Source: an uncultured Kofleriaceae bacterium
GTDB taxonomy: Bacteria; Myxococcota_A; Polyangia; HGW-17
Reading direction: 5' to 3'
DNA: 64,000 bases
Assembly (NCBI GenBank): GCA_964618145.1
Contig: CAZTZR010000003.1
Coordinates: 997 to 64,996, forward strand
Made by a program: the position numbers and the translations under genes. Below, one piece after another: positions 8,424 to 44,579 of the stretch. Below the pieces are notes generated by a model, which was not told where the DNA came from, ran no database searches, and was given only the letters and a program-made list of their open reading frames with translations. The first letter of the stretch is position 1. Each line of letters begins with the position of its first letter.

Positions 8424-11234
8424 TCAGGTGGCCAGGCATTGGCCGGTAAAACTGGCGTTGTTACGGGCGAGGGCTTCCACAGTGCCCTCGGCGACAATAT
8501 AGCCTCCGGCGTCGCCGCCTTCCGGGCCCAGGTCGATGACATGGTCGGCGCAACGGATGACATCCAGGTTGTGTTCGATGACCACCACGGAATTGCCGGC
8601 ATCCACCAGACGCTGCAGGACCGTCACCAGTTTCCGGATGTCATCGGAATGCAGACCCAGGGTGGGCTCGTCCAGCAGGAACAGGGTGCGGCCCGTATCC
8701 GCCCGGGCCAGTTCCCGGGCCAGTTTGACCCGCTGGGCTTCCCCGCCGGAAAGGGTGGTGGCACTCTGGCCCAGACTCATGTATTCCAGACCCACATCGG
8801 CGAGGGTTTGCAGGATGCGCGCCAGGGTGGGGAGCCCGGCAAAAAGCGGCAGGGCCGCTTCCACGGACAGGTTCAGGATTTCGGAGATGTCCAGGCCCCG
8901 GTATTTCACCCGCAAGGTGGCATCGTTGTATCGCCTGCCGTGACAGGTCTCACATGGAACGTAAACATCGGGCAGAAAGTGCATTTCGATCCGGCGTACG
9001 CCATCCCCCTTGCAGGATTCGCAGCGACCGCCAGCCACGTTGAAGGAAAACCGTCCGGGGCCGTAACCGGCGGCCCGGGCGGTGGGAAGTTGGGCGAACA
9101 GGTTCCGGACGAGATCGAACGCCTTGGTGTAGGTGGCCGGATTGGAACGGGGTGTCCGTCCGATGGGGGACTGGTCGATGTGGATCACCTTGTCGACATG
9201 TTCCAGACCGTCAATGCGGTCGTGGGCGCCGATGGCGGTTTTGGCGTGGTGAAGGTGGGCCGCCAGGGCAGGATGCAGGATGCCCCGTACAAGGGAAGAC
9301 TTTCCCGCTCCCGACACGCCCGTGACGGCCGTGAGACATCCCAGGGGGAAAGCCACATCCATGCCCTTGAGGTTGTTTTCCCGGGCGTTGCGCACCACCA
9401 GATGGACGGCAGGAACCCGCCGGGTCCGGGGTGGTTCGAGTTGCAGCCGTCCGGAAAGGTAGCGGCCGGTGAGGGTATCCGAATGCACAAGTTCCCGTGG
9501 GGGTCCCTCGAACACCACCTGTCCGCCCCGGACGCCTGCACCCGGTCCGAAGTCCACCACATGATCGGCGGCGCGCATGGTGTCTGCATCGTGCTCCACC
9601 ACGATCACCGTGTTGCCGTTGTCCCGCAGGGTGCAAAGGGACCGGATCAGGCGGAAATTGTCCTTCGGATGCAGGCCGATGGAGGGTTCGTCCAGCACAT
9701 AGGTCACGCCGGACAACTCGCTTCCCAGTTGGCTCGCCAGCCGGATGCGCTGGGATTCGCCCCCGGAAAGGGACGGGGCGGGACGATCCAGGGTCAGGTA
9801 TCCCAACCCCACGGAATCCAGAAACCGCAACCGGGCCTGGATCTCCCGCAACAGGCCTTCGGCGATGCGCTTTCGCCCTTCATCCAGTTTCATGTGGGAG
9901 AAATGCGACAGGCAGGCAAGAACCGTTTGGGCACATACTTCCGGGAGACTTTTCCCTGCCACCCGCACCGCGCGGGATTCCGGACGCAGACGGGTGCCTC
10001 CGCATTCCCGGCAGGATGACTCCGACAGGTACCCGGCATAATAATCCCGCATGGCCTGGGATTGGGTTTCGCGGTACCGCCGCATGAGGGTGTTCAGCAC
10101 CCCCTCGTATTCCATCAGGAAGGTTCCGCTCCCCCGCTTGTGGTGCATTTCCACGGGAAACTTTTCTCCGCCGTTGCCAAAGAGCAGCAAATCCCGGTGA
10201 GCCGCCGGCAACCGGGAGAACGGCGCGTCGAAGTTGATTCCGTAGCGCCGTTCCAGGGCCTGGAAAATGGCGAAGTTCCATCCATCCTGCCGCTCCATGG
10301 TGGCGGCCCAGGGTTCAATGGCCCCCTGGCGAACGGAACGCGAACCGTCGGGAATCACCCTGGCAGGATCCATTTCCATGCAATGTCCCAGCCCGTGACA
10401 GGCGGGACACATCCCGATGGGGCTGTTGAAGGAAAACCCCTGGGGCGTCGGCTCGGGCAGTCCCAATCCGCAACGGGTGCAGGTGCGCCGCAGGGAAAAG
10501 CGTTTGGCCTTCTCCGGCAGGGACACCGGTTCGGCGATCAGTTCCCCCTGTCCTTCCCGCAGTGCGGTTTCCACGGAGTCGGCCAGGCGGCCGGCATCCA
10601 CCCTGGCGGGGGTGATGCGGTCCACCACCAGTTCAATGGTGTGCTTTTTCGTTTTCGAAAGGGTCATCTCCGGTTCCAGGGAAAGGATCTTCCCGTTGAC
10701 CCGCACCCGGGCATAGCCCCGTGACGCCAAATCCGCGAACAACTCGGCAAAGGTTCCCTTGCGCAGTTCCACCAGGGGAGAAAGAATCAGGGCGGGTTCC
10801 TCCCATTGCGCCAGTTCACGAACGATTTGCGAGGAATCCACAGGCTCCACGGTGCAATCGCAAACGGGGCAGAACTGGGTTCCCACCCGGGCGTACAGCA
10901 CCCGGAGGTGGTCGTGAACCTCGGTGACGGTGCCCACCGTGGAGCGGGGATTGGATGCGGCCGTCTTCTGTTCGATGGCGATGGAGGGTGTCAGTCCGCG
11001 GATATGCTCACAGGCAGGTTTTTCCATCTGCCCCAGAAATTGCCGGGCGTAGGACGACAGGCTTTCCACATAGCGGCGTTGTCCTTCCGCGTAGATGGTA
11101 TCAAACGCCATGGAAGACTTTCCCGAACCTGACACCCCCGTGAAAACCACGAGACGGTTCTTGGGCACCCGCAGGTGCTCCACCCGCAGGTTGTGTTGTC
11201 GTGCGCCGGTGATTTCGATGAATTCGTTCTGCAT
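8424..11234 (-). CDS. uvrA: Excinuclease ABC subunit A
   Basis: Start MQNEFIEITGARQHNL; GVSGSGKSS Walker A; two ABC signature regions; Zn-finger CxxC pairs. ORF runs to 11297. Confidence 0.95.
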   Translation of the reverse strand: MQNEFIEITGARQHNLRVEHLRVPKNRLVVFTGVSGSGKSSMAFDTIYAEGQRRYVESLSSYARQFLGQMEKPACEHIRGLTPSIAIEQKTAASNPRSTVGTVTEVHDHLRVLYARVGTQFCPVCDCTVEPVDSSQIVRELAQWEEPALILSPLVELRKGTFAELFADLASRGYARVRVNGKILSLEPEMTLSKTKKHTIELVVDRITPARVDAGRLADSVETALREGQGELIAEPVSLPEKAKRFSLRRTCTRCGLGLPEPTPQGFSFNSPIGMCPACHGLGHCMEMDPARVIPDGSRSVRQGAIEPWAATMERQDGWNFAIFQALERRYGINFDAPFSRLPAAHRDLLLFGNGGEKFPVEMHHKRGSGTFLMEYEGVLNTLMRRYRETQSQAMRDYYAGYLSESSCRECGGTRLRPESRAVRVAGKSLPEVCAQTVLACLSHFSHMKLDEGRKRIAEGLLREIQARLRFLDSVGLGYLTLDRPAPSLSGGESQRIRLASQLGSELSGVTYVLDEPSIGLHPKDNFRLIRSLCTLRDNGNTVIVVEHDADTMRAADHVVDFGPGAGVRGGQVVFEGPPRELVHSDTLTGRYLSGRLQLEPPRTRRVPAVHLVVRNARENNLKGMDVAFPLGCLTAVTGVSGAGKSSLVRGILHPALAAHLHHAKTAIGAHDRIDGLEHVDKVIHIDQSPIGRTPRSNPATYTKAFDLVRNLFAQLPTARAAGYGPGRFSFNVAGGRCESCKGDGVRRIEMHFLPDVYVPCETCHGRRYNDATLRVKYRGLDISEILNLSVEAALPLFAGLPTLARILQTLADVGLEYMSLGQSATTLSGGEAQRVKLARELARADTGRTLFLLDEPTLGLHSDDIRKLVTVLQRLVDAGNSVVVIEHNLDVIRCADHVIDLGPEGGDAGGYIVAEGTVEALARNNASFTGQCLAT

Positions 11235-11334: not shown

Positions 11335-12912
11335 TCAAAGACATTGATTGGTCAGATCGAGGATTTCCTGCAATTCCGGGTCGGATGTCTGGTCGATCAA
11401 TCCCTGCAGTTCCGAAAGCAACAGGACTTTCTGCTGACCCCGGTCCTGTTCGTCGTAAATGGATTGACCGGCCAGGAAGCGGGCGTAGTTCACCACGGCA
11501 TTAGCCTTGTTCAGCATGCATCTTGAGCCTTGCAGCAGTTGCCCGACCGTCATGGTGACAGTTTCACTTCGGGCCTCGCGGGTCAGGGGATCCATCCAGG
11601 TGGCACGAAACACGATTTCCTGGGAATAAACGGGATTATCGTCACAATAATGCAAAAACGAGTGAAACAGCATTGCGTCATTGGGCGCCAGATGCTGGGG
11701 ACGCACTTCCTCGGGGTTCGTGGAGATCTCTTCTCCGTGGAACCGGGAGATGACAAAACCGGGGGGAAGCGTCATTTCCAGGCGCACGTTGAGTGCCGCA
11801 ATGTCCAGGTTCTGGAGAAACCGTTTCTCGGAAAAGGACTCGTATGCGGTGGCTTCGTCATTGATGTACAGGTAGGCGCCCCGTCCATAATCCGTCACGG
11901 TGTCCATCAACTGGTGATTGTAGTAATCCCCGGTTCCGACACCGATCAGGAAGATGCCGTCCCCTTCCTCCATGGAAGCGGCTTCCCCGATAAGCGTGTG
12001 AGATGTGACTCCGGTGTTGGCCCCGCCATCGCTGATGAGGATGACCCGGGTCAGTCGGTCCAGGGAATAGTGTTGCCTGGCCTGTTCATAGGCCCGGATC
12101 AAGCCACCGTTCAAATCGGTGCTTCCCGTGGCACCGAGGTTTTCGATGATGCCTGACAGGGTGGGGTCCGCCGGACCGCTTACCATGTGTCCGGAAAGCA
12201 GTACGTTCTGCACATGGCTCCATTCCACCAGGGAAATCATGTCCCCCTGACGCAACCGTACAGAGATCGCCCTGAGCGTGTGTTTCAGATTTTCAATGGG
12301 CAGACCGCTCATCGATCCGCTGGTATCCAGGCTGAACACGAAATGGACGGGGCGGCGATCCGCCAGGGTGCGGGCTTCGGAAACGAGCCCCACCAGCAGT
12401 TTGTACTGCCCGTCTTCGTCCAGCATCATTTCCGGGTAAATGGCCAGTTGGCCTGCCGGGGCAGGTTCATAGTCAAATGTGTAATAATTCAGGAATTCGT
12501 ATTCCCTGGGTGCCAAGTGGCGCAATTGATTGCAGTTGCCCTTGAGAATGCGATCCTTGGCCAGCATGGGCTGAGCCTGGGAGGCTGAGTCATCCGCACT
12601 CATGAAATAGGTCGTGGGTTCTTCCGGAGCCGTTTCGCAGAGCAGTTCCAGCCATTCTTCCAATGGGATGTCACCGATGGGTTCCCCATCCGGGTCCGTG
12701 CCGGCGTCCTGATGATTATTGCTGTTGTTAGAATTGTTAAAGTTATTGTAGTAGTTGTTTTGGTTGTTGTAGTAGTTGTTTGTGTTGTTGAGGTTATTAT
12801 AATAATTGTTTTGGTTATTAGTTGATTTTTTGCCGGATTCCGCAGTGCAGTTCGTTAATATAAATACGATCATTAAATGGAAAAAAGCTAAGTTCCGCAA
12901 CATGGCAATCAC
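11335..12912 (-). CDS. VWA-domain lipoprotein with poly-Asn linker
   Basis: Signal peptide MLRNLAFFHLMIVFILTNC (lipobox). Linker NNQNNYYNNLNNTNNYYNNQNNYYNNFNNSNNSNN. MIDAS motif VHFVFSLDTSGSMSG. Confidence 0.8.
   Translation of the reverse strand: MIAMLRNLAFFHLMIVFILTNCTAESGKKSTNNQNNYYNNLNNTNNYYNNQNNYYNNFNNSNNSNNHQDAGTDPDGEPIGDIPLEEWLELLCETAPEEPTTYFMSADDSASQAQPMLAKDRILKGNCNQLRHLAPREYEFLNYYTFDYEPAPAGQLAIYPEMMLDEDGQYKLLVGLVSEARTLADRRPVHFVFSLDTSGSMSGLPIENLKHTLRAISVRLRQGDMISLVEWSHVQNVLLSGHMVSGPADPTLSGIIENLGATGSTDLNGGLIRAYEQARQHYSLDRLTRVILISDGGANTGVTSHTLIGEAASMEEGDGIFLIGVGTGDYYNHQLMDTVTDYGRGAYLYINDEATAYESFSEKRFLQNLDIAALNVRLEMTLPPGFVISRFHGEEISTNPEEVRPQHLAPNDAMLFHSFLHYCDDNPVYSQEIVFRATWMDPLTREARSETVTMTVGQLLQGSRCMLNKANAVVNYARFLAGQSIYDEQDRGQQKVLLLSELQGLIDQTSDPELQEILDLTNQCL
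12705..12860. repeat. AAC/AAT-rich coding microsatellite (poly-Asn linker of VWA lipoprotein)
   Basis: gttgttgtagtagttgtt... on the plus strand (RC of AAC-rich codons). Confidence 0.7.
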
Positions 12913-13347: not shown

Positions 13348-14637
13348 TTGGTTAATGCGGGCACATATGTTACGTTTCGGCATGGAGAGAAGGAACCTGT
13401 GGCCGTAAGCATTGCCGAAATCATCATTTACTGCCTGATCGCCGACTGGTGTTTCCGTCGCATGGGAATTCCGGGACTCATCGGCATGCTGTTCACGGGG
13501 GTTGTCCTTGGGCCGTATGTCCTCGGGGTCATTGATCCCAATCTCTTGGCCATCGGGCCGGATCTGCGCCTCATCGCCTTGATCGTGATCCTTTTGCGGG
13601 TCGGCTTCGAATTGCGCCGATCGACCCTGCACCGGATCGGGGGCAGGGCCCTGCTCCTGGCGATGATCCCCGCCACCATGGAAGGCATTGCCATCACGAT
13701 TGCCGGACCGTGGTTGCTTGGCCTCGGTTGGCTGGAATCAGCCGTGTTGGGATCGGTTCTGGCAGCCGTTTCCCCGGCGGTGGTGGTTCCGTCCATGATC
13801 AAATTCATCAAGGAGCGTCGGGGCACGGGCAAGGACATCCCCACCATGGTCATGGCGGCGGCGTCGGTGGATGATGTGTACGTGATCGTTGTGCATACCG
13901 CCATCCTGGGGGTTCTGGTGGGTCGCCAGGTCAACATGGCTGCGCAAATCGCCATTGTCCCTCTTTCCCTGATCATCGGGATTGCCATTGGGCTGGCTCT
14001 CGGAATCATCCTGTACAAACTGTTCGACCTTTTCAATCCCCGGGCGACCAAAAGGGTCATGATCGTGATTGCCCTGTCGATTCTCCTGGTGCGCCTGCAG
14101 CACCTGCTGGCCGGCATCCTGCCGTTTGCCGGCCTGGTTTCCGCCATGGCCATCGGATTCATCATTCTGGAAAAACGCGAGAAAATGGCTCACGAACTTT
14201 CGTCCAAACTGGCCAAGGTCTGGGTCTTTGCCGAAATCATCCTGTTTTCCATGGTAGGAGCCCAGGTGAACGTTGGCGTTGCGTGGCGGGCCGGTGCCAT
14301 GGGTGCCGCCATCATCGGCATCGGTCTGGCCGCCCGTGGCATTGGGGTGGCCCTGTGTCTTGTCCGCAGCAGGTTGAATTTCATGGAAAGGTTGTTTGTG
14401 GTGGTTGCCTATTCCCCGAAAGCCACCGTGCAGGCTGCCATCGGTTCTGCGCCGCTGTTGGCGATGAGTTCTGCCGGGATGGACACCGGGCCCGGGGAAC
14501 TGATTCTGGCGATTGCCGTTCTGAGCATCATTCTGACGGCCCCCACCGGCGCCTGGGCGATCCATGCCCTGGGTCGCCGCGTACTGGAAGTGGCCCCGGC
14601 CCCGATAAGCCCGGGAGATGAATCCCTGAGTCATTGA
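13348..14637 (+). CDS. Cation:proton antiporter (CPA1/NhaP-type Na+/H+ exchanger)
   Basis: 10 or more TM helices; motifs MLFTGVVLGPYVLGVID, LLRVGFELR, AAASVDDVYVIV typical of the Na_H_Exchanger family. Confidence 0.8.
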   Translation: MVNAGTYVTFRHGEKEPVAVSIAEIIIYCLIADWCFRRMGIPGLIGMLFTGVVLGPYVLGVIDPNLLAIGPDLRLIALIVILLRVGFELRRSTLHRIGGRALLLAMIPATMEGIAITIAGPWLLGLGWLESAVLGSVLAAVSPAVVVPSMIKFIKERRGTGKDIPTMVMAAASVDDVYVIVVHTAILGVLVGRQVNMAAQIAIVPLSLIIGIAIGLALGIILYKLFDLFNPRATKRVMIVIALSILLVRLQHLLAGILPFAGLVSAMAIGFIILEKREKMAHELSSKLAKVWVFAEIILFSMVGAQVNVGVAWRAGAMGAAIIGIGLAARGIGVALCLVRSRLNFMERLFVVVAYSPKATVQAAIGSAPLLAMSSAGMDTGPGELILAIAVLSIILTAPTGAWAIHALGRRVLEVAPAPISPGDESLSH

Positions 14638-14664
14638 GTCCAGGAAATTCCGGAAGGAGAAAGC

Positions 14665-15549
14665 ATGAATCCGCAAACCATACTCAAACTGGCACAGGAT
14701 CATGGACTTGCATTGCAGGAAGACATGATTGTCAACAATCTGGGGCTTGATTTCCTGGTGGCATTTGCCACGGATCCCGATGGGACCCGATGGGTTCTGC
14801 GTCTTCCACGCCGCAAGGACATGGAGCGGCAAATCGGGCAGGAAAAAAGCATTTTGAATCTCATGCGGAAGCATTTGCCCGTGGCTGTTCCCGATTGGCG
14901 AATTGTGGCTCCGGACTTGATTGCCTATCCCCTCATGGAAGGTCAACCGGTGATCCGGATGAGTCCGGAAACGGGTGACATTGCATGGAGTATCGATCCG
15001 GCCTGTCCTGATTATGTTGTGTCACTGGCTAAAGTGCTGGCGGAAATACACCGGATTCCCGCTCAGGAAGCCGAAACAATGGGACTGAAGTCGTCCACAC
15101 CGGAGATGGTCCGACGGGAAATCATGGAAAAAATCGAACTGGTCGGAAAGGAAATGGGAATACCTGTTGCCCTGGATACCCGCTGGCGCAAATGGGTGGA
15201 TGACGATCGGTATTGGCCCGGGTTTTCTGCAGTGATTCATGGTGATTTGTATGCGGGTCATATTCTGGTGGACGAAAAAGGGATGATCACGGGCCTCATT
15301 GACTGGTCTGAAGGTCAGGTGGGGGATCCCTCCGTGGATTTTGCCGGACATTCCATGCTGTTCGGAGAAGCAAGCCTGCGGGAATTGATTCTTCAGTACG
15401 AGATTGCAGGCGGAAAGGTCTGGGACGGATTGTTCGTGCACACACTGGAGCGCCAGTCTGCGGCTTCCCTCATGTACGCCGCCTTTGCCTTGGGCATTGC
15501 CAGTAATGAGCATATCGAAGCCGCCAGGAAGATGATGGCGTCACAGTGA
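14665..15549 (+). CDS. Mph/APH-family phosphotransferase (macrolide 2'-phosphotransferase-like kinase)
   Basis: Catalytic motifs HGDLYAGHILVD and IDWSEGQVGDPSVDFA. Size about 294 aa. RBS GGAGAAAGC before the ATG. Confidence 0.75.
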   Translation: MNPQTILKLAQDHGLALQEDMIVNNLGLDFLVAFATDPDGTRWVLRLPRRKDMERQIGQEKSILNLMRKHLPVAVPDWRIVAPDLIAYPLMEGQPVIRMSPETGDIAWSIDPACPDYVVSLAKVLAEIHRIPAQEAETMGLKSSTPEMVRREIMEKIELVGKEMGIPVALDTRWRKWVDDDRYWPGFSAVIHGDLYAGHILVDEKGMITGLIDWSEGQVGDPSVDFAGHSMLFGEASLRELILQYEIAGGKVWDGLFVHTLERQSAASLMYAAFALGIASNEHIEAARKMMASQ

Positions 15550-16856
15550 ACGATGAGACATCGGAAGTTACGGGAAGAAATCGCTCTCTTTCCGGGAACG
15601 ACATTCATTGGAAAAAGGATTTGTCGCTTTTTCTCGGAGGCCAGGGTCTCTCGGTTTTTGGTTCCGCGCTGGTTCAGTATGCCATTGTCTGGCACATCAC
15701 TCTGAATACCAAATCAGGTATCATACTGATGTTGTCCGTGGCATGCAGTTTCTTGCCTGCATTCATCCTTTCGCCCATTGCCGGCGTATGCGCGGACCGC
15801 TGGAACCGGAAGCGCCTGGTTGTCTTCTCCGATGCTTTCGTTGCGGTAGTGACCCTTGGGGTGGCACTCCTGTTCATGGCAGGTTCCGGTAGCATCCTGG
15901 TATTGCTGATTGCCCAGACCCTGCGTTCTGCCGGGTCCGCTTTCCAGACTCCTGCCATTGGGGCCATACTCCCCCAAATCGTTCCGAAAGAAAAATTGCT
16001 GCGGGCCAACGGAATCAACAGCAGCATACAGTCCGCCATTCATGTCCTTTCTCCCATGGCCGGCGGAGCCCTCCTGACGCTGGCGCCCATTCACATGGTC
16101 TTTTTCGTGGATGTCGCAACAGCAGCCCTGGCCATCAGCACGCTTGTGCTGTTTTTGCATGTGCCGTCACACGGACATGCGCTGAAACCGGCGAAGGTTG
16201 GTTTTTTCATCGAATTCAAGGAAGGATTTGCCTACCTTGGGGCCCATTCCAGTCAGCTTTTGCTCTTCGTGTATTATGGACTTGTGCTGTTCCTGATTAC
16301 GCCTTCGGCTGCCCTGACACGTTTGTTGGTCGTCAGGGTTTTCGGTGAAGAAGTTTGGCGATTGAGTACCATGGACATGGTTTCTTCCATCGGCATGGTT
16401 GCAGGGGGAATACTGATTGCGACCTGGGGAGGATTCAGGAATCGCCGGATGACGATTCTTGCGGCTTCGGCCATTTTGGGAACGTGTGCATTGATGATTG
16501 GTCTGGTTCAGGATTACGTACAGATAGTCATTGTGATGGCCGTTTTTGGCATGTCTTTGCCGTTGTTCAGTACACCGTTTGCTGTGCTGATTCAGGAGAA
16601 TGTGGAAGAAGCATTTCACGGAAGGATGTTCAGTTTACTGAACATGTTTTCCAAGGGAATCATACCGATCGGAATGCTCGTGTTTGGTCCCCTGTCGGAA
16701 CTTGTCCGGATTGAGGTATTGTTGATCGTGTCGGGCTTGCTCCTTGTACTGTTGGTTTTGATCGCGCTTGTGACGATGCATCGGAACTCCGGATGTGAAA
16801 CACCCGTCAAGGAATGGTGGTTCAAAAGGAAAAAATCAGGAAAAAACCGAACTTGA
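15546..16856 (+). CDS. MFS transporter (Mrx/Mef/EntS-like efflux permease)
   Basis: 12 predicted TM helices. Overlaps the upstream kinase stop by 4 nt (ATGA). N-terminal FLGGQGLSVFGSALVQYAIVWHI. Confidence 0.8.
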   Translation: MNDETSEVTGRNRSLSGNDIHWKKDLSLFLGGQGLSVFGSALVQYAIVWHITLNTKSGIILMLSVACSFLPAFILSPIAGVCADRWNRKRLVVFSDAFVAVVTLGVALLFMAGSGSILVLLIAQTLRSAGSAFQTPAIGAILPQIVPKEKLLRANGINSSIQSAIHVLSPMAGGALLTLAPIHMVFFVDVATAALAISTLVLFLHVPSHGHALKPAKVGFFIEFKEGFAYLGAHSSQLLLFVYYGLVLFLITPSAALTRLLVVRVFGEEVWRLSTMDMVSSIGMVAGGILIATWGGFRNRRMTILAASAILGTCALMIGLVQDYVQIVIVMAVFGMSLPLFSTPFAVLIQENVEEAFHGRMFSLLNMFSKGIIPIGMLVFGPLSELVRIEVLLIVSGLLLVLLVLIALVTMHRNSGCETPVKEWWFKRKKSGKNRT

Positions 16857-26626: not shown

Positions 26627-28510
26627 ATGCGAATCCAATCGTTTCTGAAAATTCTGTTGGTTCTGGGGTGTGTTGTCCTGGTCGGTTGTGATCCTGCGGA
26701 AAAGAACACCAACAACCAGAACAATATCAACAATATCAACAACGTCAACAACATCAATAATCAGAACAACGTCAACAACGTCAACAACGTCAACAACCAG
26801 AACAACCTGTTTTTTGACCGTGATAGCGACGGGGTTCCCGATGACGAAGACAATTGTCCGGATGATTTCAATCCCATGCAGGAAGACTACAACGGGGATG
26901 GTGTGGGGGATGCCTGCACCTTCCAGGATGGCACGGTGCAACATCCGTTCATCATTTCCGTGACCGAAGACGGTGCCATTTACGATGATGCGCAGGACAC
27001 TGCCCAGTCTTCGTCCAGTGTGTTTGATTCCTATCCGCCGAACACCCTGGACCAGAGCGGTCCGGAATATGTGTATGTCATGAGTCTTCCGCGGCGCATG
27101 CAGGTTCATGCATACATTGATCTGCCGGAGCCGCCGGGAGTGGACATTGATGTGCACTTGTTGTCCTCCCTGTCTCCACTGGAGTTGATCGCCCGCAGCA
27201 ATTCGTCGGTCATGGAAACACTGGATGCCGGTTTGTATTACCTCGTGATGGATACGTATGTGTCCAACGGGGTGCCCAAGCCTGGCCCTTATCAGTTGCA
27301 TGTGCGGGCAAGGCCCTGGTACGAGGGCACTGTGGATGACATCATTCCGGTATATGGTTCGAGCATCACCGTGCCGGTTCCGTTGCCGTATGTTTTCGTG
27401 GACATGCGCGACACCTCGGAATCACTGTCCAGTGTGTTTGACTCCTATCCTCCGAACACCGTGAACCAGGAGGGGCCCGAGTATGTTTACGGATTCACGC
27501 TGGACGCGCCTGCCTGGGTGTCCGCAGAAGTGCTTGCACCAGAGCCGGCTGGAGTGGACATCGATGTGCACCTGTTGTCTTCCCTGTCTCCCCTGGAGTT
27601 GATTGCCCGGGGGAACATCCGGGTATGGTCGCGACTGGAACCCGGAACATATTACGTCATTGCCGACACCTACATGAACAATACGGGACCATATAAACTG
27701 ACGGTCTCCTTCCGTTCAGCCGGACTGGAACCGGAAACGCTTTTCAATCCGTACATTCTGGCAGCGGTGGACTACATTGATACGCATTACCGGCTGTTGG
27801 GGTATGACAGCGCCGTTCTGACCCACGATATCGAGTACGGTTCCTTTGGTACCATCCCGGCCACCGGGGGCGCCCGCACCATGTGTGTGGCGGCCGTCAT
27901 GGAGGTGATTCTGGTGGCCATGCAAATATATGAAGCCGAAACCGGCGACTCCACGGTGTGGGATTACCTGCCCATGCGTTCCTTCCAGTTTCTGGGTGCC
28001 AATGATCTCAAAGCACATTTGTGGGTGAACCACGACCTGGATTCCTGGGGAAGCGCGGACGCTGTTCGTCATTTCGGCATGGGCATGAACGTTTCCTTCG
28101 AGAACCTGATCCCGGGTTCCCTGATCAACCTCAACCGTACCACCGGAACGGGGCATGCGGTCATCTTCATTTCATTTATCGATATCGCCGGGAACGAATC
28201 CGACACGTGGCATGACGGAGTCGTAGGTTTCCGCTACTACTCCAGCCAGGGTGGCTTCAACGTCGGTTCCGGCGGCATGGATTACCGCTATGCCGTGTTT
28301 TCCCAGCACGGTTCTCCCACCATGCCCTATCTGCGGGATCTCAACGTCATTTACAGCACTTCCCAGAACTATCTCAACACCGGTGTCATGTACATGCCTT
28401 CGCACTGGCGCTCCACGGCCCGCACCATGGGTGCGAAGAAGAACCTCGATCAACCCGACGTGAGCGTCTTTGACCCCGTCTACTTTGATGGCGTGACCCC
28501 CGGAAATTAA
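26627..28510 (+). CDS. Lipoprotein with poly-Asn linker, thrombospondin-type-3 Ca-binding repeat, two PPC-like repeats and a C-terminal Cys/His domain
   Basis: MRIQSFLKILLVLGCVVLVGC lipobox. NTNNQNNINNINNVNNINNQNNVNNVNN linker. DRDSDGVPDDEDNCPDDFNPMQEDYNGDGVGDAC repeat. Duplicated SSVFDSYPPNT...GVDIDVHLLSSLSPLELIAR module. Confidence 0.8.
   Translation: MRIQSFLKILLVLGCVVLVGCDPAEKNTNNQNNINNINNVNNINNQNNVNNVNNVNNQNNLFFDRDSDGVPDDEDNCPDDFNPMQEDYNGDGVGDACTFQDGTVQHPFIISVTEDGAIYDDAQDTAQSSSSVFDSYPPNTLDQSGPEYVYVMSLPRRMQVHAYIDLPEPPGVDIDVHLLSSLSPLELIARSNSSVMETLDAGLYYLVMDTYVSNGVPKPGPYQLHVRARPWYEGTVDDIIPVYGSSITVPVPLPYVFVDMRDTSESLSSVFDSYPPNTVNQEGPEYVYGFTLDAPAWVSAEVLAPEPAGVDIDVHLLSSLSPLELIARGNIRVWSRLEPGTYYVIADTYMNNTGPYKLTVSFRSAGLEPETLFNPYILAAVDYIDTHYRLLGYDSAVLTHDIEYGSFGTIPATGGARTMCVAAVMEVILVAMQIYEAETGDSTVWDYLPMRSFQFLGANDLKAHLWVNHDLDSWGSADAVRHFGMGMNVSFENLIPGSLINLNRTTGTGHAVIFISFIDIAGNESDTWHDGVVGFRYYSSQGGFNVGSGGMDYRYAVFSQHGSPTMPYLRDLNVIYSTSQNYLNTGVMYMPSHWRSTARTMGAKKNLDQPDVSVFDPVYFDGVTPGN
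26700..26815. repeat. (AAC AAC RTC)n coding microsatellite
   Basis: aacaatatcaacaatatcaacaacgtcaacaacatcaat... Confidence 0.7.
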
Positions 28511-29391: not shown

Positions 29392-30441
29392 TCACCGGGG
29401 CGACAGATCCTGAATGTCCTGTATCAGTCGGCTGCTTTGGATGGCCCGCATGCAAAAGGGGTTTTCTCCAAAGGAATCGCCATTGCCCGCTGCCATGGCG
29501 GTACATCCGGCCCGGCAGGTTTCCGCCATGGCACAGGAGGCACATACACCGGTGAGAAGTCCTGATTTGTTCCGGAAACGGGCAAATGCACCATCGTCCT
29601 TCCACAGGTCCCCCAGTCGCCGGGTCCGCAGGTCTCCGCAAACGAACTCGTCTCCCAGGGACAGACACGGCAGGACTTCTCCGTTGGATCGGATGCCGAT
29701 GACATGGATGCCGGCCATGCATCCGCGCCAGCGTCCGTGGATATGCGGCAGTTCCCCGCCAAGGGGGTGATATCCGAAATCGTCCATGGGACAGATCCAG
29801 ACCTCCGGATCCGACCGCAGGACCCGGGTCACCTTGTTGCAGAATTGTTCATATTCCCGGACATCCAAAGACCAGTCAGCAGCAAAGCGCTCCCCCGTGG
29901 GATTGGCGACCTGCACCTGCCAGGTGATGCCGGAGCCGCGCAGCAGGTCACAAAAAGCGTCAAACTCATGGAAGTTCAGACGGCAGAATGTGGTGATGGC
30001 GTTGACGCGGGGATGTCCGGTGGCCACCAGTCTGTTCAGCAGTTCCATGACACGGTCGAATCCATCCACCCGCCGCATTCGCTGCATGGTCTCCGGGTTC
30101 GTTCCGTCCAGGGAAACCCCGATAATGTGGGGGTTCACATCCACAAAGGTGTCGAACACACGATCATCCACCATCAACCCGTTGGTGATGATGACCAGTC
30201 GCATACCCAGCCGCCCCACCTCGCGGGCGATGGTTTCCCATCCAGGATGCAGTAGAAGTTCCCCGCCAATCAGGGTGATTTCCTCGCCCCCCAGGTCCGC
30301 GAGTTCCCCAAGAACCGACAGCCATCGATCGGTGCTGAATTCCCCTTCCCGGGGTGGCCCCGAGTTGGAAGCGCAATGGACGCAGCGCAGGTTGCACCGG
30401 TTCGTCAATTCCAGGACGGCATATTTCAGCGGGGTTGTCAT
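29392..30441 (-). CDS. Radical SAM/SPASM-domain maturase-like enzyme 1 (anSME/PqqE-type architecture)
   Basis: CNLRCVHC at residues 16-23. C-terminal SPASM cysteines CASCAMAETCRAGC. No N-terminal RRE extension. Confidence 0.85.
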   Translation of the reverse strand: MTTPLKYAVLELTNRCNLRCVHCASNSGPPREGEFSTDRWLSVLGELADLGGEEITLIGGELLLHPGWETIAREVGRLGMRLVIITNGLMVDDRVFDTFVDVNPHIIGVSLDGTNPETMQRMRRVDGFDRVMELLNRLVATGHPRVNAITTFCRLNFHEFDAFCDLLRGSGITWQVQVANPTGERFAADWSLDVREYEQFCNKVTRVLRSDPEVWICPMDDFGYHPLGGELPHIHGRWRGCMAGIHVIGIRSNGEVLPCLSLGDEFVCGDLRTRRLGDLWKDDGAFARFRNKSGLLTGVCASCAMAETCRAGCTAMAAGNGDSFGENPFCMRAIQSSRLIQDIQDLSPR

Positions 30442-31574
30442 GGCAGCTCCAAAAGTGCTTCCAGAAGTTCCCGCCGCTCCAGACGGTGGTAGCAGTATTC
30501 GTTTTCAAGCCGGTTCTGGCACATGGTCAGCAGGATGTCCGGGCATCCCCCGTGACACGAAGGGGCATGGGGACATTCCCCGCATACACCTTCCAGATGA
30601 TCCGCGTGGAGCCAGGAAAGGTTTTCCCGGCAGCGTTCCTCTTCGAGGATGCGCGCAAGACCCCCCGGATCGCGAATGTTTCCCACCACGTTTTCGGGAA
30701 GGGCAAGTGCCGAACACGGGGTGACATCGCCGTTTGCCCGAACGAACAGATTCAGGATGCCTCCCGTGCAGCGTTTTTGCCAGGTGCGGGCCAGAAGGCT
30801 CAGTGGATGCCGGTTCGAGCAGGTAACCAGATCGTCCATGGGAACAATCCGGTGGGGATGCTTTTCGAAAAACCCGGCCACCTGCAAACCCAGTTCGTAG
30901 TATTCTTCAGGTGAAAGGATCAGATCCCTGCCGGCCCGGCCCTTGGCGGAAACCATCTGTACCTGCAGGGTCAGGTTTTCCCGCAGGGCCCAGTCCCACA
31001 ATGCGGGAAGTTCCCCGACGTTGATCCTCGAAAAGGCACTGATGATGCTCACGGGTACCCCGGCTTCCCGCAAAAGACGGATCCCCTCCATGGTGGCGGC
31101 GTGCATCCCGGGGCCCCGGATGGCATCATGTACCTGCGGGTCCATGCCGTCCACGCTGACAGTGGCCAGGATCACTCCGGCGTTTTTCCATGCCCGGGCG
31201 GTGGAGGCATCCACCAGGGTGGCGCTGGTGACCAGCCGAACGGGAAAACCTGCTTCCCGACCGGCGGCCAGAATCCCTTCCAGATCCGGTCGGCAGCAGA
31301 CTTCTCCCCCGGTCAGCGACAACTCCTGCATCCCGGCCTGCCGTGCATCCGACAAAAGGGAGCGGATTTCCTCCAGGGTCAATTCTGCGGTTCCATGCGC
31401 ATCCGGTCCCGCATCCACGTAGCAGTGGGGACAGGACAGGTTGCAGCGCCAGGTGATCTCCAGTTCAAGAATGTAGGGATGACGACAGGAAAATTCCCGG
31501 CCACCGGAGGAATGAAAATACCGGAATCCGTCGCCACTCCGGCGAACCCGGACACCGTCATGCGTGTGACTCAT
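30438..31574 (-). CDS. Radical SAM/SPASM-domain maturase-like enzyme 2
   Basis: CNLSCPHC; SPASM CGECPHAPSCHGGCPD. Stop/start overlap (ATGA) with enzyme 1. Confidence 0.85.
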   Translation of the reverse strand: MSHTHDGVRVRRSGDGFRYFHSSGGREFSCRHPYILELEITWRCNLSCPHCYVDAGPDAHGTAELTLEEIRSLLSDARQAGMQELSLTGGEVCCRPDLEGILAAGREAGFPVRLVTSATLVDASTARAWKNAGVILATVSVDGMDPQVHDAIRGPGMHAATMEGIRLLREAGVPVSIISAFSRINVGELPALWDWALRENLTLQVQMVSAKGRAGRDLILSPEEYYELGLQVAGFFEKHPHRIVPMDDLVTCSNRHPLSLLARTWQKRCTGGILNLFVRANGDVTPCSALALPENVVGNIRDPGGLARILEEERCRENLSWLHADHLEGVCGECPHAPSCHGGCPDILLTMCQNRLENEYCYHRLERRELLEALLELP

Positions 31575-31591
31575 GGATGGTTTCCCGAAAA

Positions 31592-32290
31592 CTAAAAACG
31601 TCCACCGCCGCCATACTTGGTATGCACGCGCGGTGGCTCATCTCTGGGAGCGGGTTTCATGGGCTTGGCAGGAGGCGCCATACCGTCTTCTTCATCCTCG
31701 AAAGGGGACGGGGCCATGGGGGGTCTGACACCTGCGCTGTACCGGTGCTTGGAATAGACCTCTTCCCCGTCCTCTCCGAAAGTGTTCTCCAGATTGGAAT
31801 CCGTCTTTGCTTCCGGTTCTGTCTGAACCTTTCCAGGGGGTTCCGCCTCTTCGGACACTGATTCCGTGTCCCCTTGGGACGACGGCAGGGTGGCAGCTTT
31901 TTCCCTGGGACCGCACCCGGAGGAGGCCAGGGTGACCGCAGTGGCCATCACGGCCACGGAGCCGGAGAAACGCAGAAACATGGACCAGAGTTTCTGGAGG
32001 CGGGGGGATGACTCCCGTTCCATGCGGTTCTTCTGGTGCAAAAAGACCCGTTCGAAGGTCTTGCGGTCCCCGGCCAGAAGCGAACCCAGTCCGTACTGCA
32101 ACTGGGCTTCGGTGTTGCCCGGGTCCAGTTGCGTGGCCTGTTCGAAGCATTCAACCGCATGGGCTGTCCGGCCTTCGGCCAGGGCCATGCGTCCCTTTTC
32201 CATCCAGTCTTGTGTTGTCATGTGGGGCACCTCCTTCGGGTACGAAGGAATTGTACGGGAGGTTTCAGAGTTTGTCCAGCACCTGTTCAC
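31592..32290 (-). CDS. TPR-like N-domain / single-TM / acidic Pro-rich C-tail protein ending KYGGGGRF
   Basis: TPR-like start MTTQDWMEKGRMALAEGRTAHAVECFEQATQLDPGNTEAQ; TM segment LWSMFLRFSGSVAVMATAVTLA. 18 nt upstream of rSAM enzyme 2. True start may be ATG 32221. Confidence 0.6.
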   Translation of the reverse strand: MNRCWTNSETSRTIPSYPKEVPHMTTQDWMEKGRMALAEGRTAHAVECFEQATQLDPGNTEAQLQYGLGSLLAGDRKTFERVFLHQKNRMERESSPRLQKLWSMFLRFSGSVAVMATAVTLASSGCGPREKAATLPSSQGDTESVSEEAEPPGKVQTEPEAKTDSNLENTFGEDGEEVYSKHRYSAGVRPPMAPSPFEDEEDGMAPPAKPMKPAPRDEPPRVHTKYGGGGRF

Positions 32291-42082: not shown

Positions 42083-43081
42083 TCATTCCTCACGGGCGGG
42101 GGGAAGAACTTCCAGAATGCGCGAAAGATTTTTCGCCACGTGTTCCTGACAGGAAAAAACTTCCCTTTTCACGGAATCCATGAATCCTGCGGGTTTGCGG
42201 TGTGCTGCGCAGTCATTTTCCATGTCCCGGGCAGAATCGGTCATCCGTTGACCAATGGTCCGGTAGAGAAAATGTGACAATCCGCGGGCTTCCCTGGATT
42301 CGTTCTGGAAATGAATCATGGCTTTGTGTAGATATTCCATGGCATCCTTGTTCCGCTGGGCCTGCCATGCGGTGGCGGATTCATTCACAAAGTGCCGGAT
42401 GCGGTCCCGTTGTTTCAGGAATTCGCGTTTTTGTTCGCTTTCGTGCAACCGCTGTTGCAACTGCTCCCGAACCGCCCTGGATTCGTTGAGTTCCTGATCC
42501 AGCCTGGCGACTTCCTTTTTGAAGCGCACGATTTCGGTTTGCCTGTCCTTGAGTCGGCTTTCCAGATCCGATCGGCCCCATCGCCCACCGATATAGCCGA
42601 TGAAAAACAGCAGGATGCCCGTCAGGACCAGCGCAACTCGATGTCCCCATGTGGTGGAAAGAATTTTCTTGATGACCACCCACAGATCCGATGGTTTCGG
42701 TTCTGGTGGTCCTGATGGGGTTTGCGATGAAGCCAGGGCTGATTCACGCATCATGTCCCTGGTTTTCTCCGGGTCCGGTGTGGGTTCGGGCCCGGGAGTG
42801 GGTTGTGGCTCGGGCCCGGGAGTGGGTTGTGGCTCGGGTTCGGGAGTGGGTTGTGGCTCGGGTTCGGGAGTGGGTTGTGGCTCGGGTTCGGGTTTCGAGC
42901 CGGTCCCTGGCGGTGCCGGTGCCGGGGGCTCCAGTTCCAGAACCGGTTCCGGAGGGTCCGCGCCTGGGTTTTCCTGCACAACGGGTATCTCCGGTTGGGT
43001 GTTCAGTGCCAACAACCGCGGGTCCGGTCCCGGTAGGGGCGCCGGGGAGGGACTTTCGGAAGGGTTTTTTTTTGTGTTCAT
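42083..43081 (-). CDS. Membrane-anchored protein with Pro-rich PEPEPQPT tandem repeats and coiled-coil domain
   Basis: (PEPEPQPT)x4-5, TM VALVLTGILLFFIGYIGG, then a Glu/Arg-rich coiled coil. Confidence 0.7.
   Translation of the reverse strand: MNTKKNPSESPSPAPLPGPDPRLLALNTQPEIPVVQENPGADPPEPVLELEPPAPAPPGTGSKPEPEPQPTPEPEPQPTPEPEPQPTPGPEPQPTPGPEPTPDPEKTRDMMRESALASSQTPSGPPEPKPSDLWVVIKKILSTTWGHRVALVLTGILLFFIGYIGGRWGRSDLESRLKDRQTEIVRFKKEVARLDQELNESRAVREQLQQRLHESEQKREFLKQRDRIRHFVNESATAWQAQRNKDAMEYLHKAMIHFQNESREARGLSHFLYRTIGQRMTDSARDMENDCAAHRKPAGFMDSVKREVFSCQEHVAKNLSRILEVLPPAREE
42775..42905. repeat. About 30-bp tandem repeat (gggttcgggagtgggttgtggctc)n, 4-5 copies, coding for PEPEPQPT
   Basis: Direct reading of 42781-42900. 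Confidence 0.8.
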
Positions 43082-43105: not shown

Positions 43106-43891
43106 TCATGGCCGGATCCCGATGACACCCAGATGCAGGCCGTTGGGCCAGCCATCGCGGCGGTAGGAATAGAAAAGATCGTTTCGGCAGAAGGTGCAAC
43201 CGGAAAATTCGGGATGATGCACCATGCAAACGCCGGACCGTAAAAGTTCATCCTTTGCCATGGTTGGCAAATCTGCCAGGATCCGGCCTTGACAGACAGA
43301 CACGTGTTTCGGGTGGTCCTGCTGCATGCGTTCGGCCACCTCGGGTCCGATTTCGAAACAGCAGGAACCGATTCCGGGACCCACTGCCGCCCAGACATCC
43401 TCCGGTTTGCAACCCGCCTTCTGACAGAGGGTTTCCAGTCCGAACCGGCAGATGCCGTCCACCAGTCCACGCCATCCCGCATGAAGTGCAGCCACCACGG
43501 ACCCGTCGGGGGCAGCCAGAAGTACGGGAAGGCAGTCCGCAGTTGTCACACCGATGGCCCGGCCGGGAACCGAGGTGATCAGTCCATCGGCTTCTTCGGC
43601 CAGCACCTCTTCCGGGGTCAGGTGGTCCACATCCAGGATCCCCACGCCATGCACCTGTTCCGCCGTGTAGATTACGGTTTCAGGAAAACCCATTGCATGC
43701 AGGAGAAGCCGCCGGTTTTCCAGGACGTTTTCCAGGTTGTCCCCCTTTTTCCAGTGCATGTTCCCCGATGCATACACGCCTTTGGACACTCCCCCTGTTC
43801 GCGTGGAAAATCCATGGGCGATACGGGGAGGGCATCGGTCTGCCGAGAGGAGGATTGAATGATGACTGCTCAATGTAGCTCCTTCATGCAA
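43106..43891 (-). CDS. pgeF: Purine nucleoside phosphorylase / peptidoglycan editing factor YfiH/PgeF (DUF152 laccase-like)
   Basis: HAGWRG motif and conserved Cys/His pattern of the YfiH family. Confidence 0.85.
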   Translation of the reverse strand: MHEGATLSSHHSILLSADRCPPRIAHGFSTRTGGVSKGVYASGNMHWKKGDNLENVLENRRLLLHAMGFPETVIYTAEQVHGVGILDVDHLTPEEVLAEEADGLITSVPGRAIGVTTADCLPVLLAAPDGSVVAALHAGWRGLVDGICRFGLETLCQKAGCKPEDVWAAVGPGIGSCCFEIGPEVAERMQQDHPKHVSVCQGRILADLPTMAKDELLRSGVCMVHHPEFSGCTFCRNDLFYSYRRDGWPNGLHLGVIGIRP

Positions 43892-43949
43892 ATGGAAACA
43901 TACAGGAAAGGCGGGACGGGTTCAACTCTGAACGGGCAGGACCCTTGAA

Positions 43950-44579
43950 TCATGGGCGGATTTCATCATAATGCAACAGGGCATCCATGACATTCCGTAC
44001 CATGGCGTCGGAAGTCCAGGTAGCCCCTGAAACCACATCCACCCCCAGACTCTGATACAGCGCCTGACAACCGGGGCTGCAATTCTGGTTGTACCCGGGC
44101 AAAAGCGTGAAACTTTCATAGGACCTGCCTGAAAACTGGGTGAAGAAAGACAGGGGAATCATGCTCCACCAACTTTCGCGCTGGTCAATGGTTTCCAGCC
44201 CCACAGCCACCTCGTCCCGGGAAATTCCCAGCATTGTCGTAATCAAACCGTTGAATCCGTAATGGGTTTTTACCAGTGCGTATCCGAGGACTTCCTGGTT
44301 GTCATCGCGCAGTATCCAGTAGTTTCCCGAGGCGCTGGAGTCTTCAGTGGGAGTGGTCCGGGGAAACAACTGGGAGAGTGCCTGGTTTTCGGTCTTGTTC
44401 CGGTTGGCCGGGATGACTTCAACGTTGTTGATATTGTTGGTATTGTTGATGTTATTAATGTTGTTGATGTTGTTGATGTTATTGATGTTATTGATGTTAT
44501 TGACCGGATCTGACTTCGGATCCGCCGGGCAACCTGTGAGGGTCAGTGCCATACACCCGACCAATATCATTTTCATCAT
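43950..44579 (-). CDS. FMN-binding-domain lipoprotein with poly-Asn linker
   Basis: Start MMKMILVGCMALTLTGC (lipobox). Linker NNINNINNINNINNINNINNTNNINN. FMN_bind motif VDVVSGATWTSDAMVRNV. Confidence 0.75.
   Translation of the reverse strand: MMKMILVGCMALTLTGCPADPKSDPVNNINNINNINNINNINNINNTNNINNVEVIPANRNKTENQALSQLFPRTTPTEDSSASGNYWILRDDNQEVLGYALVKTHYGFNGLITTMLGISRDEVAVGLETIDQRESWWSMIPLSFFTQFSGRSYESFTLLPGYNQNCSPGCQALYQSLGVDVVSGATWTSDAMVRNVMDALLHYDEIRP
44395..44510. repeat. (GTT GAT RTT)n coding microsatellite (NNI linker, minus-strand gene)
   Basis: gttgttgatattgttggtattgttgatgttattaatgttgttgatgtt... Confidence 0.7.

Follow-up and report, generated by a model that had tools for sequence, protein, structure and literature searches.

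Approximately half of the outer-membrane lipoproteins of Escherichia coli have a disordered N-terminal linker of more than 22 residues, whose length, and not its sequence, matters for sorting by the Lol system (bioRxiv 10.1101/2021.01.05.425367), and as a kind such linkers are known. In a 64,000-nucleotide stretch of DNA from an uncultured Kofleriaceae bacterium (GenBank assembly GCA_964618145.1, contig CAZTZR010000003.1, positions 997 to 64,996; hereafter the window), four predicted lipoproteins carry, shortly after the lipobox cysteine, a tract of (Asn-Asn-x)n repeats encoded by 9-bp units, which we refer to as the NNx tether. These tethers resemble the linkers of the E. coli proteins RcsF, Pal, and NlpD (El Rayes et al.) in occupying the slot that separates the sorting residues (+2 to +4) from the globular domain, in having a similar length (>22 residues) and predicted disorder, and in being replaceable in sequence across homologues. 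The E. coli linkers contain no tandem repeats and have no shared composition, unlike the strict (NNx)n pattern, 9-bp units, and clade-specific composition found here, and a role of the tethers in Lol sorting would be assigned by analogy with them.

The H.8 epitope of Neisseria reportedly consists of AAEAP pentapeptide repeats that follow the lipidated cysteine of Lip and of the lipid-modified azurin Laz, and it is likewise a lineage-restricted low-complexity repeat past the lipobox cysteine that is common to unrelated lipoproteins of one genome, although the H.8 motif is Ala/Glu/Pro-rich with a 15-bp unit, is known from a few proteins within a single genus, and bears no sequence relationship to (NNx)n. 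In the case of the Vlp and Vsa proteins of Mycoplasma, which are size-variable surface lipoproteins with in-frame tandem repeats that change copy number by slippage, the similarity lies in the alteration of lipoprotein length by the copy number of in-frame repeats; the Vlp and Vsa repeats have longer units, form the exposed body or C-terminal part, and vary at high frequency coupled to phase variation, in contrast to the NNx tethers, where variation looks slow, with one indel among several close allele pairs. The export signal of Bacteroidota surface lipoproteins, of the K-(D/E)2, SDDDD, or SDFFE type (PMC5080379), also places acidic residues just past the +1 cysteine, and many of the tether lipoproteins start with C-[DGS]-D-[DG], but that signal is a positional motif of about five residues that is sufficient for surface exposure, whereas length, variability, and a lack of charge characterize the NNx array. 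Asn-rich low-complexity regions occur across the proteomes of Plasmodium and Dictyostelium as a result of extreme AT richness (PMC3749963, PMC11132505), and N-rich low-complexity classes are, according to a survey of such domains, essentially eukaryotic and rare in bacteria (PMC11132505). The NNx tethers share with these regions the high Asn content, the repeat-driven expansion, and the predicted disorder, but they are found in genomes of 41 to 69% GC, in one slot, and in one class of protein, whereas the Plasmodium and Dictyostelium regions can lie anywhere in a protein. A further counterpart is provided by (DDDx)n tethers in metagenome-assembled genomes (MAGs) of other Myxococcota, which take the same slot in the same protein families and are also built from short in-frame repeats (12 bp), though they are strongly acidic and not neutral, have a period of four residues and not three, and never occur together with NNx in the sampled loci. 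Full-text literature searches returned no description of Asn-rich lipoprotein linkers or of NNVNNVNN-like motifs, the matches being to degenerate DNA barcodes and Plasmodium. Four aspects appear to be undescribed: the chemistry and periodicity of (NNx)n, the fact that it is confined to a single slot across many families of one Myxococcota clade, the way it persists in GC-rich genomes, and the (DDDx)n counterpart of sister clades, with which it is mutually exclusive.

A six-frame scan of the window for segments with at least eight Asn per 20 residues found exactly four open reading frames (ORFs), all of them among the five lipoproteins that a preliminary description of this DNA had credited with a poly-Asn linker. 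The features of these proteins, and of the fifth, are as follows.

11335 to 12912, minus strand: VWA-domain (PF00092) predicted lipoprotein, 525 aa from a GTG start (ATG at 12903), exact match to public protein P0001
12850 to 12912, minus strand: its signal peptide, with lipobox LTNC and Cys22 at 12847 to 12849
12820 to 12846, minus strand: its pre-linker TAESGKKST (+2 to +10)
12715 to 12819, minus strand: its Asn-repeat tether, 35 aa with 22 Asn, GC 0.26, imperfect (9- and 21-bp periods, 76-89% matches)
26627 to 28510, plus strand: TSP3-repeat (Pfam TSP_3) predicted lipoprotein, 627 aa, with tandem PPC-like beta-sandwich domains (P0122)
26687 to 26689, plus strand: Cys21 of its lipobox LVGC, followed by pre-linker DPAEKNT at 26690 to 26710
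26711 to 26806, plus strand: its Asn-repeat tether (NNx)10NN, 32 aa, x = Q/I/V, GC 0.365, 9-bp period, 79% matches
43950 to 44579, minus strand: FMN_bind-domain (PF04205) predicted lipoprotein, 209 aa
44529 to 44531, minus strand: Cys17 of its lipobox LTGC, followed by pre-linker PADPKSDPV at 44502 to 44528
44424 to 44501, minus strand: its Asn-repeat tether (NNI)6 NNT NNI NN, 26 aa, GC 0.256, 9-bp period, 8.9 copies, 87% matches
59081 to 60124, minus strand: predicted lipoprotein, 347 aa, no Pfam match, orthologues in loci L083 and L084
60065 to 60067, minus strand: Cys20 of its lipobox VFGC, followed by pre-linker TVGSKLSE at 60041 to 60064
59987 to 60040, minus strand: its (NNQ)6 tether, AATAATCAG then five copies of AACAACCAG, GC 0.41, the (NNQ)5NN part being 59990 to 60040
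44862 to 47075, plus strand: Cys-rich-repeat predicted lipoprotein without an NNx tether (negative case), VVGC followed by DDGGKKKKVNTT and then the Cys-rich domain

Codon-level inspection gives the four tethered proteins a common layout, in which a signal peptide and lipobox cysteine are followed by a pre-linker of seven to nine residues and then by an (Asn-Asn-x)n tract of 17 to 35 residues; the tract does not, as had been proposed, follow the cysteine immediately. The fifth protein does not belong to the set, since its NTTNNTT motif lies 59 residues past the cysteine, at residues 80 to 86 (45099-45119) and between domains, although a relative, P0263, has NTNNVNNLNNLNNVNNVNNA in the equivalent post-cysteine position. 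The nucleotide pattern (AAYAAYNNN)3AAYAAY has 18 matches in the window, which are confined to the four tether loci and lie on the coding strand every time, compared with none expected by chance from 100 dinucleotide-preserving shuffles. Asn makes up 62 to 71% of the tracts and 3.1% of the residues in the long ORFs of the window, the x position is nearly devoid of K, R, D, and P, and the tracts have a GC content of 0.26 to 0.41 compared with 0.574 for the whole window; the resemblance to Q/N-rich prion-like domains is one of composition only. The tracts are in-frame 9-bp tandem units inside the coding region. Near-perfect repeats had been claimed for all of them, but this applies to the tract of the 59081-60124 protein, the sole perfect 9-bp array (Tandem Repeats Finder, TRF, 59985-60034, 5.6 copies, 100% matches), and not to the other three, where TRF matches are 76 to 87% with variation between AAC and AAT and in the x codon. 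The (ctggttgtt)x6 array earlier placed at 59995-60047 was approximately 8 nt off and is the tract at 59987-60040.

The four proteins differ in their Pfam domains (VWA, TSP_3, FMN_bind, and none), and no significant pairwise similarity was detected among their mature parts. An exchange of a cassette containing signal peptide and tether between genes is unsupported, the aligned N-termini sharing little outside the Asn columns. Approximately nine other predicted lipoproteins in the window have no NNx tether, their linkers being P/E/S/A-rich in some cases and short in others, and annotation of the rest of the window found no genes for Lol, LspA/Lgt, or oligosaccharyltransferase near the tethers. 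The VWA protein begins with VIAMLRNLAFFHLMIVFILTNC and TAESGKKST, followed by the tract NNQNNYYNNLNNTNNYYNNQNNYYNNFNNSNNSNN, and its public copies (P0001), which are on a 99-kb NCBI contig that also holds P0122, on a Logan contig (L001, SRR5581382), and in an ENA record, are identical in sequence and differ only in the called start. The collections searched contained no exact-sequence match for the uvrA ORF, the FMN_bind protein (with three candidate starts), or the 59081-60124 protein.

In all four proteins the signal peptide combines a basic n-region with a hydrophobic h-region, as in MRIQSFLKILLVLGCVVLVGC and MQRHFRSALFLLSAFLVFGC. With the lipobox written as [LVI]-[ASTVI]-[GAS]-C, LVGC, LTGC, and VFGC are canonical, as is the lipobox of 36 of 37 tether lipoproteins collected across the clade. 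The lipobox of the VWA protein itself (L-T-N-C, 12847-12858) has an atypical Asn at -1, where all its orthologues have Gly, Ala, or Ser. Among the 37 tether lipoproteins the pre-linker has a median length of nine residues and contains Asp at +2 in 13 and at +3 in 19, Lys is frequent at +6 and +7, and Ser or Lys follows the acidic residues, while in the pre-linkers of the window (TAESG, DPAEK, PADPK, TVGSK) acidic residues are scattered and number no more than one or two; the Bacteroidota export signal calls for a polar or basic residue and then two or more acidic ones at +3 to +5. Not one of the 37 carries Lys at +2, the residue found at this position in 8 of 12 inner-membrane lipoproteins of Myxococcus xanthus (PMC3222651).

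Models made with AlphaFold2 (AF2) from family alignments bear out, for the two tethers modeled, the earlier proposal that the linker is disordered. In the case of P0001, residues 4 to 65 have a predicted local distance difference test score (pLDDT) below 50 with no secondary structure, and a well-folded domain begins at approximately residue 67 (P0001 numbering); in the TSP3 protein, residues 17 to 60 have a pLDDT of 34 to 53 and are assigned as coil by DSSP. Both tethers adjoin domains with a pLDDT of approximately 90, and the best fold match to the TSP3 body is the pair of tandem collagen-binding (PPC-type) domains of ColG (5iku). From the cysteine to the end of the tract there are 44 residues in the VWA protein, 39 in the TSP3 protein, 35 in the FMN_bind protein, and 25 to 26 in the 59081-60124 protein, and in all four the linker between the sorting residues and the globular domain exceeds 22 residues, with which the AF2 domain boundaries are concordant.

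The distribution of the tether follows relatedness. We inspected the best 120 homologues of the VWA protein. They come from Myxococcota or 'Deltaproteobacteria' MAGs, and almost every one is a lipoprotein in which a low-complexity stretch follows the cysteine; this stretch is NNx in the closest homologues (P0002-P0007, P0011, and P0014) and poly-Asp, DxDx, or G/S-rich in the others. Among VWA homologues the NNx form is limited to those of at least 46% identity; it is found in all known relatives of the 59081-60124 protein, and it is present in TSP3 homologues P0125-P0127 (74-75% identity) and absent from those at or below 61% identity, with D-, G/S-, or P-rich linkers in the NNx position of distant relatives. 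In the TSP3 family, too, a low-complexity linker of some kind nearly always follows the cysteine. As a query, the full-length 59081-60124 protein returned two relatives, probably as a result of Asn words swamping the candidates, and the TSP3 protein was queried with its mature part alone. When GTDB species genomes were scanned with a VWA profile, 80 loci were obtained, in which the 40 residues following the cysteine were classified with a simple lipoprotein predictor. N-rich tethers do not extend beyond the window and its nine closest loci (L003-L011), D-rich ones are limited to more distant loci, and none of the 80 loci has both. Among the flanking lipoproteins other than VWA, biased tethers are four N-type and no D-type at N-type loci, and no N-type and 28 D-type at D-type loci (Fisher p=2.8e-5), so tether chemistry follows the genome and not the protein family. 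The D-type tethers have the form (DDDx)n, are encoded by 12-bp repeats, and are common to many unrelated lipoproteins of a genome, for example seven of nine in L064. Together with one MAG that has N-type members of three families (GCA_964601905.1; L003, L083, and L206), these results uphold the idea of a shared, lineage-specific linker in unrelated proteins.

The N-type loci have GC contents of 0.41 to 0.69, and L004, at 0.69, contains three NNx lipoproteins; base composition can therefore not explain the Asn, and we rejected it as the cause, the tracts themselves being at 0.26 to 0.41 GC. In a sample of approximately 249 kb of this clade, made up of the window and its closest relatives, (NNx)>=3NN occurs in 18 ORFs and in no other; each of the 18 is a lipoprotein by signal peptide and lipobox, with the tract past the cysteine. 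The tether is found in 14 of the 45 predicted lipoproteins in this sample and in at least six unrelated families. An exhaustive HMMER search of 1.84 billion representative proteins, with a profile made from the four N-termini of the window with the signal peptide included, gave 22 matches at E<=1e-3, all with the same architecture and with diverse mature domains, and the only named organisms among them are Myxococcota or HGW 'Deltaproteobacteria' MAGs. Since the signal peptide was part of the profile, these matches demonstrate recurrence and breadth and not, independently, positional specificity. A metagenome-wide scan for (AAYAAYNNN)4AAYAAY found a lipobox in 1 of 133 ORFs, its 120 loci being mostly AT-rich, eukaryote-like (AAT/AAC)n microsatellites, and is uninformative about distribution because the pattern also fits homopolymeric poly-Asn.

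Within the tethers the periodicity is strict, with the NN pairs exactly one residue apart in 238 of 266 cases across 26 tethers. In these, x is T in 56 cases, V in 37, Q in 29, L in 28, I in 22, S in 21, E in 16, A in 10, G in 7, and Pro in one, and it is almost never K, R, D, or P. Length varies among orthologues, from 17 to 59 aa in the VWA orthologues and 77 to 80 aa in a tandem paralogue, and in the orthologues of the 59081-60124 protein at L083 and L084 the flanks are kept (TVGS... and NDP[ST]D) while the tracts vary between (NNQ)6, NNA(NNV)3NN, and (NNT/NNV)5. In two species, paralogues of L004 and L005 that are 79% identical contain different blocks of identical units, seven copies of AATAATCTG plus three of an 18-bp unit in L004, and (AACAACGAG)4, (AACAACCAG)5, and (AACAACACS)16 in L005. 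Synonymous codons are uniform within the blocks, even AAT-AAT in a genome of 69% GC, and this block-wise uniformity is the mark that unit duplication, through slippage or unequal exchange, leaves. In the case of P0257 and P0267, from two MAGs, 281 of 281 aligned residues are identical and the sole change is a 12-residue (four-unit) indel of LNNVNNTNNVNN in the tether. These observations support the slipped-strand length variation that had been predicted, although the comparison of strains gives a mixed result: the copy-number change at strain level is this one indel, and no change is seen in the VWA gene, the only window gene with several assemblies on record, which is identical across three of them, or in three other close allele sets, including P0254/P0268 and P0263/P0269/P0270, which at 88 to 98% identity show substitutions at x only. 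The turnover of tract length is real, but the close allele pairs without length change indicate that these are not hypermutable contingency loci. The preliminary description was confirmed in part, for four of its five proteins and with some details imprecise, and its interpretation is supported.

The reading that we favor, with a probability of roughly 60%, is that the tracts are intrinsically disordered, uncharged, hydrophilic N-terminal lipoprotein tethers that space the globular domain from its anchor. The order of elements would be a signal peptide, a lipidated lipobox cysteine (+1), a pre-linker of approximately nine residues, the (Asn-Asn-x)n tract of 17 to 35 residues in the window and up to about 80 in relatives, and the globular domain. 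According to established lipoprotein biology, the cysteine would be lipidated after Sec export, and under the rule described for M. xanthus the lack of Lys at +2 would mean that the protein escapes retention in the inner membrane. If E. coli is a guide, the extended tether may hold the folded domain about 6 to 12 nm off the membrane anchor and may ease the Lol-dependent trafficking of lipoproteins that leave the inner membrane. The in-frame 9-bp arrays (AAY-AAY-NNN) would grow, shrink, and homogenize by replication slippage or unequal recombination and subsequently decay by point mutation, and the Asn richness would be a heritable preference of one Myxococcota clade, its sisters using (Asp-Asp-Asp-x)n, with 12-bp units, or G/S/P/A-rich linkers. 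Of these elements, the data show the position and periodicity of the tract, its restriction to a clade, its independence of genome GC, its predicted disorder, and the turnover of its length by gain and loss of 9-bp units, while lipidation, membrane destination, the spacer or Lol role, and the reason for the preference for Asn are inferred. That the slot is kept while its content is replaceable across clades fits a model in which length and not sequence matters. If the tether is a spacer only, it would be a tidy but modest addition to lipoprotein biology.

Several considerations weigh against a plain spacer. The repeat is more regular than mere spacing needs, as seen in the spacing of the NN pairs, and x favors beta-formers and hydrophobic residues, with little K, R, or D and few of the residues classic for linkers, Gly (7) and Pro (1). 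The retention of Asn over 41 to 69% GC suggests that the composition itself is selected, which a model in which sequence does not matter does not predict. Lipidation, localization, and disorder are predictions, the last from models of two tethers; the sample consists of approximately 249 kb of MAG fragments, with loci picked around VWA genes and so not independent of the VWA family; and the one indel at strain level was seen in MAGs assembled from short reads, in which repeats may collapse. The preference for Asn, with its strict NN-x periodicity and beta-former x, finds no explanation in spacing, and this is the main reason for keeping other explanations in view. A bolder proposal, to which we give a rather small chance, would make tether composition a lineage-specific 'address code', with (NNx)n or (DDDx)n co-evolving with envelope machinery such as Lol components, a surface or matrix exporter, or a modifying enzyme, or else mediating co-assembly through Asn ladders; if this were true, the repeat would be a sorting or assembly module and not an inert spacer.

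Alternatively, the NNx tract, possibly with the acidic pre-linker, could be a clade-specific signal recognized by dedicated machinery for surface export, for matrix release, or for a particular sorting route, much as the Bacteroidota export signal is read, which would account for the strict NN periodicity, for the retention of Asn whatever the GC of the genome, for a composition that tracks the genome and not the protein family, and for the Asp enrichment at +2 and +3 ahead of Ser or Lys. We consider it unlikely, given that length (17-80 aa) and x vary freely among orthologues, that sister clades fill the slot of the same proteins with chemically very different linkers, that the four pre-linkers in the window are weakly acidic with no candidate machinery in the window, and that the tether is present in 14 of the 45 predicted lipoproteins of the clade. 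The same length variation could instead be the selected trait, the tracts being contingency loci in which slippage alters the reach, masking, or antigenicity of exposed lipoproteins across a population, as in the Vlp and Vsa proteins of Mycoplasma; the perfect blocks of in-frame 9-bp units, the four-unit indel between otherwise identical alleles, and the differences in length among species would fit, but three of the four window tracts are interrupted (76-87% matches), which damps slippage, the close alleles of VWA and of the P0254 and P0263 sets keep their length, and in-frame units cannot toggle expression, making this explanation quite improbable. Slightly less credible still is a self-associating or adhesive module of the polar-zipper or prion-like kind that would cluster lipoproteins with the same tether or bind matrix or polysaccharide. 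With about 65% Asn, an x drawn mostly from beta-formers (T, V, Q, L, I, and Y), and little Gly or Pro, the tethers recall N-rich low-complexity domains described as aggregation-prone (PMC11132505), and one tether type on unrelated proteins of a genome would allow co-assembly, but AF2 predicts no tether structure, and the slot holds mutually repelling poly-Asp tethers in sister clades, which favors a generic spacer.

Two further explanations have, in our estimation, very little chance of being correct. That the tracts are a neutral by-product, either a tolerated microsatellite expansion or sequence left untranslated by a true start codon downstream, is suggested by the NCBI start of P0124, an orthologue of the 59081-60124 protein, which lies past the tract, and by tracts that look partly decayed (P0126). 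Upstream of the tract, every orthologue nonetheless conserves the frame, the signal peptide, and the lipobox, the tracts occur only in the post-cysteine slot (18 of 18), and they persist up to 69% GC, which together indicate translation and selection. An array of N-glycosylation acceptor sites (N-x-S/T) would be in keeping with the 77 of 238 clade-wide units in which x is Thr or Ser and with the (NNT)16 of some relatives, but x in the window is mostly I, V, Q, Y, or L, with no sequon in (NNQ)6 and one in the FMN_bind tract. PglB-type enzymes need an acidic residue at -2 (D/E-X-N-X-S/T sequon), which is absent here, and no oligosaccharyltransferase is seen in the window; with sequons few or absent in the window tracts, glycosylation as a general explanation was rejected.

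As things stand, Myxococcota clades impose one repeat chemistry, neutral NNx or acidic DDDx, on many unrelated lipoproteins whatever the GC content, a natural experiment on whether the envelope reads linker composition and not length alone and a rare case of Asn-rich low-complexity sequence kept by selection in GC-rich bacteria. The tether also provides a simple sequence signature for spotting lipoproteins and for mending start codons in poorly annotated MAGs. For example, P0124 (290 aa; L084 9657-10706, GCA_002841905.1, PHBF01000023.1) has a deposited start downstream of the tether, while its intact ORF reaches approximately 59 codons further upstream and includes a signal peptide, lipobox, and NNT/NNV tether, and Asn-repeat tethers may systematically mislead start-codon calling in related MAGs.

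Other observations concern the related loci. In L005, an N-type genome, a lipoprotein gene at 14083-15585 (minus strand) encodes a (DMTP)n tether after the cysteine, behind which the record has a run of masked N, and repeat-built tethers in the N-type clade are thus not confined to Asn. The D-type locus L064 contains intergenic arrays of a 7-bp unit, RGTATGA, in 6 to 11 copies at 9335-9413, 14323-14366, and 16264-16307, each of which begins immediately past the stop codon of one gene and lies approximately 80 bp before the next paralogous (DDDx)n lipoprotein gene; a 7-bp unit, if placed in a promoter or leader region, could vary expression. Across loci L013-L081, many third-party annotation (TPA) MAGs whose titles read 'uncultured Rickettsiales' or 'uncultured Enterobacterales' encode the Myxococcota-type VWA lipoprotein with poly-Asp tethers, and the taxonomic labels on those records look unreliable. 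At L205 1347-9876 (GCA_964516435.1), type III CRISPR-Cas genes, including a Cas10 palm domain, RAMP proteins, and Cas_APE2256, lie directly upstream of the TSP3-lipoprotein orthologue P0125.

In the window itself, a Cu-oxidase_4 gene (PF02578, polyphenol oxidase/laccase-like) lies directly downstream of the FMN_bind lipoprotein gene on the same strand (43106-44579, minus), and the best NCBIfam matches of the FMN_bind protein are weak ones to RnfG; judging from these sequence relationships, a periplasmic or extracellular flavin redox role is suggested for this lipoprotein. The gene at 42083-43081 (minus strand) encodes a 332-aa product with a predicted transmembrane segment, no Pfam match, and, in its N-terminal part, a (PEPEPQPT)n region made by a 24-bp tandem repeat (42786-42892, 4.5 copies, 97% matches), which is a second low-complexity region built by a DNA repeat in the window and is unrelated to the Asn tethers. 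Finally, a 143-aa ORF at 31592-32023 (minus strand) combines a signal peptide resembling those of lipoproteins (ASSGC) with a body rich in E and P and with GGGGRF at the C-terminus, and directly downstream of it are two consecutive radical-SAM/SPASM genes (30438-31574 and 29392-30441, minus strand), so that by gene content the region 29392-32023 looks like a peptide-maturation operon, akin to those for peptides that are made ribosomally and then altered post-translationally (RiPPs), with a putative lipoprotein-type precursor.

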